In this document: one piece after another, positions 1 to 4,714 of the stretch
How the letters are laid out: each line of letters begins with the position of its first letter
How positions within the stretch are numbered: position 1 is the first letter of the stretch
Source of the DNA: a virus
Lineage: Duplodnaviria > Heunggongvirae > Uroviricota > Caudoviricetes
DNA length: 4,714 nt
Reading direction: 5' to 3' (one strand)
Virus record (IMG/VR): IMGVR_UViG_648276652_000010
Location: 1 to 4,714 of that record
The notes under the pieces: generated by a model
The model's database searches: none
Told to the model about the DNA's origin: nothing
What the model saw: the letters and a program-made list of their open reading frames with translations, nothing else
Program-made: the position numbers and the translations under genes

Positions 1-232
<232 letters not shown>

Positions 233-263
233 CTGTTATTTATGCCAAAAATAAAGGCCACTA

Positions 264-464
264 TCAGGCAGCTTTGTTGTTCTGTTTACCAAGTTCTCTG
301 GCAATCATTGCCGTCGTTCGTATTGCCCATTTATCGACATATTTCCCATCTTCCATTACAGGAAACATTTCTTCAGGCTTAACCATGCATTCCGATTGCA
401 GCTTGCATCCATTGCATCGCTTGAATTGTCCACACCATTGATTTTTATCAATAGTCGTAGTCAT
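264..464 (-). CDS. ral: Ral restriction-alleviation protein (66 aa)
   Basis: ATG at 464 (minus). Product MTTTIDKNQWCGQFKRCNGCKLQSEC... matches my recollection of lambda Ral in sequence and length. It sits in the expected place downstream of N in the PL operon. Confidence 0.75.
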   Translation of the reverse strand: MTTTIDKNQWCGQFKRCNGCKLQSECMVKPEEMFPVMEDGKYVDKWAIRTTAMIARELGKQNNKAA

Positions 465-534
465 ACGGATAGTCCTGGTATTGTTCCATCACATCCTGCG
501 GATGCTCTTCGAACTCTTCAAATTCTTCTTCCAT
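448..534 (-). CDS. orf28-like acidic 28-aa peptide (MEEEFEEFEEHPQDVMEQYQDYPYDYDY)
   Basis: Not in the ORF track (too short). ATG at 534 is preceded by GAGGTG (revcomp of 539..544) at 4-nt spacing. Its stop TGA (448..450) overlaps the ral start by 17 bp, the same arrangement I recall for lambda orf28/ral. Confidence 0.5.
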   Translation of the reverse strand: MEEEFEEFEEHPQDVMEQYQDYPYDYDY

Positions 535-542
535 ACATCACC

Positions 543-707
543 TCAAATAAGTGGTTTGCTGCGAAAATAAATACGCTCCCACCAAGTTCCGTATCTATCT
601 ATCCAGTTACACCAATCATCGACACTCCATTTTGTTGTGTCGCATTTTGGCAATTGACATGAATATCTACCTTCTTTGTAAAGTCGGCGTTTGACTTTCT
701 TGAGCAT
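543..707 (-). CDS. Hypothetical small protein (54 aa; MLKKVKRRLYKEGRYSCQLPKCDTTKWSVDDWCNWIDRYGTWWERIYFRSKPLI)
   Basis: ATG at 705..707 (minus) is preceded by GAGGT at 5-nt spacing. The longer 74-aa track ORF begins with GTG at 767 and has no RBS. The stop overlaps the orf28 RBS. Trp/Cys-rich with no recognisable family. It occupies the interval where lambda has sieB. Confidence 0.35.
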   Translation of the reverse strand: MLKKVKRRLYKEGRYSCQLPKCDTTKWSVDDWCNWIDRYGTWWERIYFRSKPLI

Positions 708-770
708 GACTACCTCAATCGTAATAAGCTGGAATTGATTTTCCGCGTTGTTTCTGGCGACCAACACAAG

Positions 771-1154
771 TCACCTTGCTGTCAGTTGTTTTGATTTCCT
801 GTAGCCTGCCGCGTAAAGAGCTACATTTGGAAGACATACACCAGTTTCTGGTTGCCTATGCCCAAACTCATTCGCGTACACAATGGCCGCTCTCTCCAGA
901 TTGCGTCTGTATTCTTTCTGTTGCCAGATCACGTCCTGTGCCATGAACTTAATTGGCTTAGCGTCTTCTATGCGCTCAGGCGTTTCGTGAGTACCTTTAG
1001 CCTGAATCTGCGCTCTGCTTAGAGTAGGGCGGTGTAATACTTCTGAACTTATTGCTTCTTCGCGGGCCAGTACGCCGTTAGCTAATGCCTTTGCCTTTAA
1101 ACGCTCACGACGACGAGAACGTGAATTGCCTTTGAACTGAGTTCTGCGTGTCAT
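771..1154 (-). CDS. N: N-type transcription antiterminator, P22 gp24-like (127 aa)
   Basis: ATG at 1154 with AGGAGG 6 nt upstream. N-terminal arginine-rich motif NSRSRRRERLKAKALANG. The C-terminus ...LPNVALYAAGYRKSKQLTAR resembles the recalled P22 N terminus (...VALYAAGHRKSKQITAR). Lies directly downstream of PL and nutL. Confidence 0.7.
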   Translation of the reverse strand: MTRRTQFKGNSRSRRRERLKAKALANGVLAREEAISSEVLHRPTLSRAQIQAKGTHETPERIEDAKPIKFMAQDVIWQQKEYRRNLERAAIVYANEFGHRQPETGVCLPNVALYAAGYRKSKQLTAR

Positions 1155-1319
1155 ATAGACCTCCTGATGAACTTTGGTGGTGTGGTAGGTGGGAGACCCA
1201 TTTCGACCTGTTTCGGCCTACTTCAATTCGGCAATAGTCCCGCAGGCCTCGCCGCTTTACGTGCGACATATTCCCGTCCATGAACCCTTCACCACACCCC
1301 AAAGTTCACTTTGGTTATT

Positions 1320-1334
1320 GCGCTTTGTCAGCGC
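1320..1334 (-). promoter_or_regulatory. nutL boxB hairpin (GCGCUGACAAAGCGC, GACAA pentaloop, P22 type)
   Basis: Minus-strand sequence GCGCTGACAAAGCGC forms a 5-bp stem with loop GACAA, in the PL leader about 165 nt upstream of the N start. No canonical boxA (CGCTCTTTA) is visible upstream. Confidence 0.5.
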
Positions 1335-1402
1335 CGTAGATTCATATTCGAATCGTTGTATATTCACCGCCCTGGTGAGTAGTGCGTCCTGCTGATGTGT
1401 TT

Positions 1403-1465
1403 AGTATCACCGCCAGTGGTATTTATGTCAACACCGCCAGAGATAATTTATCACCGCAGATGGTT
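1403..1465 (-). promoter_or_regulatory. PL promoter with operators OL1 (1405..1421), OL2 (1429..1445) and OL3 (1449..1465)
   Basis: The three 17-bp sites tatcaccgccagtggta, caacaccgccagagata and tatcaccgcagatggtt match lambda OL1/OL2/OL3 as I recall them. Minus-strand -35 TTGACA is at 1426..1431 and -10 GATACT at 1403..1408, with a 17-bp spacer. Confidence 0.85.
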
Positions 1466-1610
1466 ATCTGTATGTTTTTATATAGATTTATTTTTTGCAG
1501 GGGTGTGTGGCTTGGGAGGTGATCGAGAGATCTGAATTGCGATGTTTAGTGAGTTGTATCTATTAATTTTCAAATAAATACAATTGGTTATGTGTTTTGG
1601 GGCGAACGTG

Positions 1611-1650
1611 AGGCAAAGAAAACCCGGCGCGGTGGCCGGGTTTATTTATT
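1611..1650. terminator. Intrinsic terminator hairpin, potentially bidirectional; t_imm-like end of the cI operon
   Basis: Stem cccggc (1623..1628) pairs with gccggg (1635..1640) around a 6-nt loop. The minus strand follows it with TTTTCTTTG and the plus strand with TTTATTTATT. It sits immediately 3' of the stop of the last cassette gene and before OL. Confidence 0.5.
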
Positions 1651-2296
1651 GCTTAGGAGCTTGTTGTGATGACGATTGGTTAGTTGGAGCGCTCGTTAAT
1701 GGTTGCTGTGTCGGTACCTGTATTATAATTGGAGCCGGGCTGGTTACTGATGGTGACTTGTCATTGCCGGAGATAATCCAACTTGAGGCTAACATCACGC
1801 CAGACAGAATCACAGTAACTAAAGTCAAGCCAACGGCCATCGCCCACTGAGTCGTTGTAAGTCCCGTTTTCAAACCGCCGATTTCACCTTTAATTTCAGC
1901 AATACCTCTCTCAATAGAAGAAAATTGCTGAGTATAATAGGTTTTAAAGTCAGCTGATTCGCGACGCATTTCCGCAGCAATAGACTCTACCTCTGATTTG
2001 TTTTGTGAAAGCTTTGCGTCAAGTTCTTCTCTGGACATTCCGCTCACGCTTACCTCCAGGGTATCACTCTTCATCGCTACATCTTCCTTACTTGGGCGCA
2101 AACCCGTTTCGTCCATGGCGTATGAAACTCTATTTGATACCTTAGCATCAATACCAATACTTTGGTACTGAGATGGATCCCCATAAGGAGAAACGGTTGT
2201 CGCTGCTAGGGTTGCACTAACTATAATACTTGGAAGAACTGATGATGTTGTTCCTGAGGTAGGTTGAACTGAAGAAACTGGCTTCAGTCTTTCCAT
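1646..2296 (-). CDS. Hypothetical membrane-anchored protein (216 aa): Ser/Thr-rich N-terminal region, central predicted coiled coil, one C-terminal TM helix, Ser/Pro/Gln-rich tail
   Basis: ATG at 2296 overlaps the stop of the upstream gene (ATGGAAAGACTGA), suggesting translational coupling. An alternative internal start at 2072..2074 has a strong AAGGAAG RBS and would give 142 aa. Hydrophobic segment AMAVGLTLVTVILSGVMLASSWII. Stop TAA at 1646..1648 abuts the terminator hairpin. Confidence 0.6.
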   Translation of the reverse strand: MERLKPVSSVQPTSGTTSSVLPSIIVSATLAATTVSPYGDPSQYQSIGIDAKVSNRVSYAMDETGLRPSKEDVAMKSDTLEVSVSGMSREELDAKLSQNKSEVESIAAEMRRESADFKTYYTQQFSSIERGIAEIKGEIGGLKTGLTTTQWAMAVGLTLVTVILSGVMLASSWIISGNDKSPSVTSPAPIIIQVPTQQPLTSAPTNQSSSQQAPKQ

Positions 2297-2550
2297 AGCC
2301 CATTATCCCTGAGAGCTACCTGTAATGATTTTACTAATGCAACAGCTTGATCCGGGCTCATTGAGACTGACATGTTAGGGGTCAACTCAACTTTTACTTG
2401 GAAGCTATTCTTTCCTTGCTCATCAGACTGCATGTGATGCTCAAATTCATGGCGGTAAAAAGTAATGATTGTTTCAGCACGATCAGGCGTAATAAGAACT
2501 GATGTGGCGGTCATGTGCTGAGGTATGATTTTAATAGTGTTATCTGACAT
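2284..2550 (-). CDS. Hypothetical soluble protein (88 aa; MSDNTIKIIPQHMTATSVLITPDRAETIITFYRHEFEHHMQ...)
   Basis: ATG at 2548..2550 (minus) is preceded by AAAGGA at about 6-nt spacing. The track ORF extends to an ATG at 2691 (135 aa), but that start has no Shine-Dalgarno. No recognisable family. The 3' end overlaps the next gene. Confidence 0.5.
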   Translation of the reverse strand: MSDNTIKIIPQHMTATSVLITPDRAETIITFYRHEFEHHMQSDEQGKNSFQVKVELTPNMSVSMSPDQAVALVKSLQVALRDNGLWKD

Positions 2551-2742
2551 AAGTATCCTTTTTGTTTCCTTAGTATTTTTTTGCATTGACATCAGAAATA
2601 GCGAATCCACAAGAGTATGAGTAAAGCTAATCAGTTTAGTGATACGGTGACTATTAAAGTGGTAAACCACATCAAAGCTCGCAGAGTGCATACCAGGCTG
2701 TCACACATGACAAAGTAACGAGGATGCCTGATCTCATAGCGC

Positions 2743-2898
2743 TCAAAGAGACATGCCGATAATGGCATTAACCACGCATGACGCCATAAACACGCCGCCA
2801 ACGATGAAGCTGGCTTGGTTCTTCCTGGTAGCGCCAAGAGTCAACAGAACCACTGAAAGGGCAAAAAAAGGTATCGCGATTATGCTGAACGTGTTCAT
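2743..2898 (-). CDS. Small membrane protein (51 aa; MNTFSIIAIPFFALSVVLLTLGATRKNQASFIVGGVFMASCVVNAIIGMSL), two predicted TM helices
   Basis: Not in the ORF track. ATG at 2896..2898 (minus) with GAGG at 5-nt spacing. Two hydrophobic stretches are separated by a basic loop, RKNQ. First gene after cI on the same strand, 77 bp downstream of the cI stop. Confidence 0.45.
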   Translation of the reverse strand: MNTFSIIAIPFFALSVVLLTLGATRKNQASFIVGGVFMASCVVNAIIGMSL

Positions 2899-2975
2899 GT
2901 TGACCTCAACTTATTTCGATTCTCCATCACCCTTAATCCGCCGCCCCATGTGTTTGTTGTGATTCGTTGCTGGCC

Positions 2976-3692
<717 letters not shown>

Positions 3693-3695
3693 TTA

Positions 3696-3765
3696 AATCT
3701 ATCACCGCAAGGGATAAATATCTAACACCGTGCGTGTTGACTATTTTACCTCTAGCGGTGATAAT
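3696..3765. promoter_or_regulatory. OR3 (3700..3716), OR2 (3723..3739), OR1 (3747..3763) with divergent promoters PRM and PR
   Basis: tatcaccgcaagggata and taacaccgtgcgtgttg match lambda OR3 and OR2. OR1 reads tacctctAgcggtgata, against lambda tacctctGgcggtgata as I recall it. PR -35 ttgact is at 3737..3742 and -10 gataat at 3760..3765. PRM hexamers lie on the minus strand at 3719..3724 and 3696..3701. Confidence 0.9.
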
Positions 3766-3780
3766 GGTTGCATGTACTAA

Positions 3781-3990
<210 letters not shown>

Positions 3991-3997
3991 GTAACAC

Positions 3998-4043
3998 CGC
4001 TATTTTCACAATGGACATTCGTCCTACGTCGCTGACAAAGCGA
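3998..4043 (+). promoter_or_regulatory. nutR: boxA-like cgctattttcaca (3999..4011) and boxB hairpin ucgcuGACAAagcga (4029..4043)
   Basis: The boxB has a 5-bp stem and GACAA loop, the same loop as the nutL boxB. It lies between cro and cII on the PR transcript. The pentamer CTACG precedes both boxB copies. Confidence 0.45.
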
Positions 4044-4128
4044 GTCCCAATATATCTGACCAACTAAGGCCATATGCGTTTCCACGCATACCTTTCAACT
4101 AGCTATTCACTATTGGAAATCATAAGAA

Positions 4129-4425
4129 ATGGAACAAACAAGTTACAGCAAACTATCCCAGCGTGACGTTGATCGCGCAGAAACAGATTTACTCATCAAC
4201 CTGTCAACGCTTACCCAGCGCGGTCTGGCAAAGATGATTGGCTGTCATGAATCGAAGATAAGCAGAACGGACTGGAGATTTATTGCTTCAGTCTTGTGTG
4301 CTTTCGGAATGGCATCAGACATCAGTCCGATTAGTAGAGCTTTTAAGTATGCGCTTGATGGAATCACAAAGAAAAAATCCCCGGTGGCCGCCGGGGACTC
4401 TAAGCAAATTGATATGCAATTCTGA
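4129..4425 (+). CDS. cII: CII-like transcriptional activator (98 aa), divergent from lambda CII except at the C-terminus
   Basis: In the lambda cII position. The HTH-like segment GLAKMIGCHESKISRTDW and the C-terminal ...KKKSPVAAGDSKQIDMQF parallel lambda ...NKKRPAATERSEQIQMEF. The 32-nt spacing to the O start matches lambda. Confidence 0.7.
   Translation: MEQTSYSKLSQRDVDRAETDLLINLSTLTQRGLAKMIGCHESKISRTDWRFIASVLCAFGMASDISPISRAFKYALDGITKKKSPVAAGDSKQIDMQF
4372..4397 (-). terminator. t_oop-like intrinsic terminator embedded in the 3' end of cII
   Basis: Minus strand reads GTCCCCGGCGGCCACCGGGGATTTTTTC: a 7-bp GC stem (4378..4384 with 4391..4397), 6-nt loop and a run of six T. Same position relative to the cII stop as lambda t_oop. 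Confidence 0.6.
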
Positions 4426-4448
4426 GGGAATTACTGGATCAATCAACA
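4372..4448 (-). ncRNA. oop: oop-like antisense RNA (about 77 nt), 5' end inferred by analogy to lambda
   Basis: The 3' end is defined by the terminator above. The 5' end is placed by lambda spacing only. The expected pO -35 would fall inside the IS629-like insertion. Confidence 0.35.
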
Positions 4449-4461
4449 GGAGTCATTATGA
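4446..4461 (+). pseudogene. O: Replication initiator O: RBS and start codon only, interrupted by IS insertion
   Basis: caggagtcattATGA matches the lambda O translation start. From 4459 the sequence is the IS left end rather than O codons. Confidence 0.5.
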
Positions 4462-4714
4462 ACCGCCCCGGGAATCCTGGAGACTAAACTCCCTGAGAAA
4501 GAGGTAAACAGAATGACTAAAAATACTCGTTTTTCCCCCGAAGTCCGTCAGAGGGCGATTCGTATGGTTCTGGAAAGTCAGGGCGAATATGACTCACAGT
4601 GGGCGGCAATTTGTTCCATTGCCCCAAAGATTGGCTGTACACCGGAGACTCTGCGTGTCTGGGTACGCCAGCATGAGCGGGATACCGGAGGCGGTGATGG
4701 CGGGCTCACCACCG
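4459..4714 (+). mobile_element. IS3-family insertion sequence (IS629/IS3411-like), left inverted repeat and 5' part; continues beyond the window
   Basis: TGAACCGCCCCGGGAATCCTGGAGACTAAACT at 4459 matches the IS629 left end as I recall it, followed by orfA with an AGAGG RBS. Confidence 0.8.
4513..4714 (+). CDS. IS3-family transposase OrfA (HTH, InsE-like), 3' partial
   Basis: [67 protein letters not shown]... is the characteristic IS629-type OrfA N-terminus. The frame is open to the window end. Confidence 0.85.

Follow-up and report, generated by a model that had tools for sequence, protein, structure and literature searches.

The closest described relatives of the locus analysed here are laboratory lambda and the lambda-immunity phages HK97, mEp234 and HK106. 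In lambda, OR1 reads TACCTCTGGCGGTGATA and is annotated at positions 37998-38014 of NC_001416. The records of mEp234 (EF120460) and HK106 (EF120461) annotate a different 17-mer as 'operator oR1', and EF120460 describes it as bound by Cro and CI. Both belong to the series EF120455 to EF120461, which holds immunity regions from lambda-immunity phages. We take these to be the wild lambda-immunity phage records of Degnan et al. 2007.

We examined a stretch of viral DNA of 4,714 nucleotides (IMG/VR record IMGVR_UViG_648276652_000010, positions 1 to 4,714), referred to below as the window. Phage HK97 matches about 3.7 kb of it (751-4461) at 98.8% identity. Over positions 3600-3900, HK97, mEp234 and HK106 are each 100% identical to the window, while lambda is 98.7% identical. 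From left to right, the immunity module consists of ral, a DUF5484 gene, N (127 aa), nutL/PL/OL, a gp48/gp49-like gene pair, a 51-aa ORF, cI, OR, cro, and CII (98 aa). The cI gene, located on the minus strand at 2976-3689, encodes a repressor of 237 aa that matches Pfam HTH_3 and Peptidase_S24, and cro, located on the plus strand at 3790-3990, encodes a protein of 66 aa. Both are intact ORFs, as are N and cII.

The place downstream of cI that rexAB occupies in lambda is taken here by the gp49/gp48-like pair, which lies on the minus strand at 1646-2550 and comprises a 216-aa ORF (1646-2296) and an 88-aa ORF (2284-2550), neither with a Pfam match. The pair looks like a mobile cassette expressed during lysogeny. 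Just downstream of cI, also on the minus strand, is a hydrophobic ORF of 51 aa (2743-2898), whose match to a PspC-type transmembrane region is weak and below threshold. At another locus (L140, 5401-5556), where the repressor is a different one, a gene of 51 aa is called in the corresponding place. The gp48/gp49-like pair is itself found downstream of at least four repressor types, namely lambda CI, an HTH_3 protein of 129-133 aa encoded beside YdaS/YdaT genes, an S24 protein of 231 aa, and an S24 protein of 235 aa; the assembly index lists the 216-aa protein in 4277 blocks.

Insertion sequences border the module on both sides. On the left, positions 1 to about 229 belong to the 3' end of an istB gene of the IS21 family, and an IS3-family element, IS1203/IS629-like, starts at 4462, 36 bp after cII and before the replication genes. 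A copy of this right-hand element in a related E. coli genome bears the annotation IS1203 family. The left IS21-type junction of the window was absent from complete E. coli genomes, where the best match covers 230-4711 in four pieces. Because the gene content is HK97-like and IS elements lie on both sides, we regard the locus as an immunity module of HK97 type within a prophage that has been disrupted by IS elements and is probably defective.

OR1 of the window, at 3747-3763, is the 17-mer TACCTCTAGCGGTGATA, the same as in HK97, mEp234 and HK106. An earlier note on this DNA had reported that OR1 differs from that of lambda by one base, and alignment with NC_001416 bears this out. The window has A at 3754, and the lambda reference truly has G. 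This is the sole mismatch in 111 aligned bases extending from just upstream of OR3 to the start of cro. The note had further placed the change at position 8 of the weaker half-site, next to the operator centre and within the PR spacer, and this is accurate in every detail. Base 3754 is position 8 of the non-consensus OR1 half-site TACCTCTG, adjoining the central pair. It also falls inside the 17-bp PR spacer, with the -10 hexamer beginning 6 bp further downstream, and corresponds to PR position -18 if the transcription start of PR is taken from the EF120460 annotation. Operator sequences read directly gave, for position 8 across the twelve half-sites of lambda, nine G, one C, two T and no A.

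The remainder of the operator and promoter region is that of lambda. OR2 (3723-3739), OR3 (3700-3716) and the three left operators OL1 (1405-1421), OL2 (1429-1445) and OL3 (1449-1465) are all identical to their lambda counterparts upon sequence comparison, as the earlier note had stated. PR, on the plus strand at 3737-3765, was located by a promoter scan and by the homologous site in EF120460. Its -35 hexamer TTGACT (3737-3742), its -10 hexamer GATAAT (3760-3765) and the 17-bp spacing between them are the same as in lambda, and no TG extended -10 motif is gained or lost. PRM, on the minus strand at 3696-3724, was positioned by transferring the mEp234 annotation (offset +230) and is likewise identical to lambda. 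Thus, three 17-bp operators stand at lambda spacing and overlap the divergent promoters PR and PRM, OL1-OL3 match lambda, and CI and Cro are essentially those of lambda. At the level of sequence, the OR/OL-cI-cro region qualifies on every count as a predicted imm-lambda operator region. To the right of OL3 (window position ~1475), in the stretch that separates OL3 from the cI operon's end, a T-run (GTATG-TTTTTATATAG) is one base shorter than in lambda and HK97.

A single changed base in the operators is unremarkable given the overall divergence of the region. Across cI-OR-cro (2976-3990), the window and lambda differ at 23 of 1015 positions (2.27%), and the 100-bp cI-cro intergenic region holds just one of the 23 differences. 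At this rate, ~2.3 differences would be expected in the 102 operator bases, compared to the one seen, and the chance of finding at least one difference in OR1 alone is 0.32. Since the cI-cro divergence of ~2.3% predicts as many operator changes or more, conservation is slightly higher in the operators than around them, and they are not unusually changed.

The A at 3754 is widely shared. Alignment showed it in HK97 and mEp234, and together with HK106 these phages and more than 60 independent contigs have the base in common with the window. When IMG/VR viral contigs were searched with a 41-mer allowing any base at the polymorphic position, 39 of the 68 contigs recovered had A and 29 had G. A 21-mer search of metagenome contigs, counting genuine OR contexts, yielded 22 with A and 11 with G, and most of these G copies had an OR region identical to laboratory lambda, including the Thr codon of cI. 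These counts leave out chance occurrences of the 21-mer TACCTCT[A/G]GCGGTGATAATGG (loci L080, L114 and L118; L101 and L119). Such occurrences were seen in a conserved gene of Methylococcaceae-like contigs and in a tandem repeat of two metagenome contigs. Among 5,426 complete E. coli genomes, the exact 61-mer of the window was present in 81 records and that of lambda in 114; a lambda-type OR is present in about 555 complete E. coli genomes.

The earlier note had allowed that the difference might be a neutral polymorphism, and this part of it gains from the distribution: A is found in HK97, mEp234 and HK106, forms the majority among both viral and metagenome contigs, and occurs in many phage backgrounds. 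Its framing of the base as a departure from the norm did not hold up. That framing is misleading because, in environmental sequences, the G of laboratory lambda is less common than A.

A scan of species-representative genomes gave 25 matches, 24 with G and one with A, and these numbers are uninformative on natural frequency since the G matches have the OR-region sequence of laboratory lambda and nearly all sit in unrelated species, while the single A match is an unrelated coding sequence. The 24 reference assemblies with the laboratory-lambda OR nearly all represent species unrelated to E. coli, including Mycobacterium parascrofulaceum, Enterococcus, Marinobacter and Helicobacter cinaedi. Several of the lambda-like contigs in unrelated species are ~48 kb long and have low coverage. 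The laboratory-lambda OR in these species is most likely due to contamination with lambda DNA or vector.

We extracted 114 cI-OR-cro copies, which collapsed into 63 haplotypes, and constructed a neighbour-joining tree without the column of the polymorphic base. That there are 63 distinct haplotypes argues against the matching records being copies of one sequence. The tree separated a lambda-like clade with G from an HK97-like clade with A, with intermediates present, and parsimony on it required ~5 changes between the A and G states. In addition, the genes that follow cI beside the A allele are of at least four different sets, among them the gp48/49-like pair, hicAB and rexAB; a rexAB-carrying prophage of E. 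coli strain 1190, for example, has A in OR1. This distribution is the pattern of an old polymorphism that has been reshuffled by recombination among mosaic lambdoid phages.

The OR1 A is thus an already known natural variant and not a new mutation of the lysis-lysogeny switch, because it is the ordinary allele of HK97 and of most wild lambda-immunity phages. We consider it very probable that base 3754 represents the HK97-type OR1 allele, an old and widespread polymorphism of lambda immunity that has little effect on the affinity of CI or Cro. According to this explanation, CI dimers would bind OR1 and OR2 cooperatively, blocking PR and activating PRM as in lambda, and Cro would bind OR1-OR3 in an order of preference opposite to that of CI. 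The G-to-A change, a transition from purine to purine, would fall beside the operator centre in the half-site expected to contribute less to CI binding, and would leave both PR hexamers and their spacing untouched. CI and Cro affinity would then change little, probably by well under 1 kcal/mol, and immunity specificity would be unaltered. Whereas the identity of the allele, its frequency and its spread over backgrounds were read directly from the sequences, a small or nil effect is what we infer, mainly from natural history, since A is carried by many temperate phages and prophages with lambda immunity that are intact and independent of each other. The high frequency of A indicates compatibility with a working switch, not neutrality.

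For the size of such an effect, we performed a toy Shea-Ackers calculation with the classic energies. With a loss of 0.3-1.0 kcal/mol at OR1, PR became half free at a CI dimer level 1.3- to 2.5-fold higher, and it was still >99% occupied at 20-100 nM dimer even with +1 kcal/mol at OR1. On this scale, a modest shift in the induction set-point would be the largest plausible consequence of the A allele.

We found no measured CI or Cro binding energy for G to A at position 8 of the non-consensus half, and the Sarai-Takeda matrix is reproduced as figures only in the papers that use it. Lagator et al. 2017 (PMC5481185) mutated PR/OR1, and there the matching residue (their 32) was changed only from G to T, never from G to A. 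The values for the 32T single mutant had been considered and were set aside, as the mutant numbering in the lists disagrees with that in the data tables. In the tables of PMC5481185, the same single-mutant values recur in rows without a common mutation, and a -10 mutant lacks the low value expected of it.

The window differs from lambda in the proteins that act at OR1 as well. CI has two substitutions: Thr to Ala at residue 3 (also written Thr2Ala; codon 3681-3683, minus strand) and Lys to Asn at residue 71 (also written Lys70Asn; codon 3477-3479, minus strand). The resulting CI sequence is the commonest CI allele linked to A. Cro has one substitution in all, Lys39 to Asn (codon 3904-3906). 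Among about 110 copies, OR1 A was accompanied by cI Ala3/Asn71 in 60 and by Thr3 in 4, and OR1 G by Thr3/Lys71 in 39 and by Ala3 in 15. Cro Asn39 occurred in 32 copies with OR1 A versus one with G. Hence, OR1 A is linked strongly yet incompletely to CI Ala3/Asn71 and Cro Asn39.

This linkage speaks for a different account, in which A measurably weakens or strengthens the binding of CI or Cro and, together with CI Thr2Ala/Lys70Asn and Cro Lys39Asn, makes up a co-adapted wild haplotype whose induction threshold or lysis-lysogeny bias is unlike that of laboratory lambda. Residue 3 belongs to the DNA-contacting N-terminal arm of CI, and this arm reportedly extends to the central base pairs of the operator. 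Because of this position, co-adaptation between the CI arm and OR1 is conceivable. The absence of A at position 8 from all the half-sites of lambda and the 1.3-2.5-fold movement of the CI threshold that the toy model attaches to 0.3-1 kcal/mol point the same way. However, the linked sites all lie within ~300 bp, so shared ancestry alone predicts that they travel together. Moreover, the linkage is broken in both directions (15 copies combine G with Ala3 and 4 combine A with Thr3), only 32 of 66 A copies have Cro Asn39 and about half keep Lys39, and the allele has switched ~5 times on the haplotype tree. Given the short distance and the incomplete linkage, shared ancestry is the simpler account. 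Co-evolution of the CI arm with OR1 is inseparable from physical linkage with these data. Taken as a whole, an allele that resets the set-point seems to us an unlikely explanation. The specific claim that OR1 A, CI Thr2Ala/Lys70Asn and Cro Lys39Asn form a co-adapted haplotype with a threshold or bias of its own is, if anything, slightly more doubtful; were it true, the textbook parameters of the switch would describe a minority variant.

It is also very improbable that the base acts on the strength of PR rather than on repressor binding. It does lie in the spacer at -18, 6 bp upstream of the -10 hexamer, and spacer sequence near -18 is said to influence sigma-70 promoters. Nevertheless, effects of this kind are usually small, the change spares both hexamers and the 17-bp distance between them, and it neither makes nor destroys a TG extended -10 motif.

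The flanking insertion sequences (the IS21-family end at 1 to ~229 and the IS3-family element from 4462) might suggest that OR1 is degenerating in a disrupted prophage, or that it has become operator-constitutive as in lambda vir. We give this next to no credence. The intact temperate phages HK97, mEp234 and HK106 and the more than 60 independent contigs have the same base, and in the window itself the ORFs of cI, cro, cII and N are intact. Phages of lambda immunity that form plaques and lysogenise carry the allele, which effectively refutes this account. An error of sequencing or assembly at 3754 is hardly credible, as the identical base is present in many independent records of differing sources.

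The preferred reading, an ordinary wild allele of OR1, carries a caution, namely that a difference from a laboratory reference is not necessarily a mutation; in this case it is the G of lambda that is the rarer environmental state. What appeared as a variant in the window is the allele usual in the wild; it was deposited with HK97, and the wild-phage records of 2007 annotate it. A quantitative comparison of the two OR1 alleles, combined with the corresponding CI and Cro alleles, would bear on the extent to which the classic lambda parameters hold for wild phages of lambda immunity; the effect is expected to be small.

Compared with known systems, the window is nearest to HK97 (NC_002167 / AF069529), mEp234 and HK106, which have the same OR1 17-mer, including the A, and identical OR2, OR3, PR and PRM. 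It differs from all three in that IS elements truncate its module at either end, and from mEp234 in that the latter has hicAB where the window and HK97 have the gp49/gp48-like pair. Laboratory lambda shares 16 of the 17 bases of OR1, the position of OR1 relative to PR, OR2 and OR3, and the OL sites. It is set apart by G at half-site position 8, by Thr3/Lys71 in CI and Lys39 in Cro, and by rexAB downstream of cI.

Prophage remnants next to tRNA-Thr in E. coli O157:H7 (loci L072 and L073, ~3957-4077) have the same three-operator layout and nearly identical cI and cro genes, and copies of an IS1203-family element flank them. In contrast to the window, they have G in OR1. In OR2 their central base is C instead of T, and directly behind the -35 hexamer of PR they show a further one or two changes. 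Since these remnants vary at the centre of OR2 and after the -35 hexamer, OR is polymorphic at several sites in nature. Finally, the OR1 mutations of lambda vir and of other operator-constitutive mutants were selected for lost repressor binding and allow growth on lysogens. Mutations of this type resemble the difference in the window in being single-base changes within OR1. Unlike them, OR1 A is found in temperate phages classed as lambda-immune, and it sits beside the operator centre, away from positions 2, 4 and 6, where contacts are strong.
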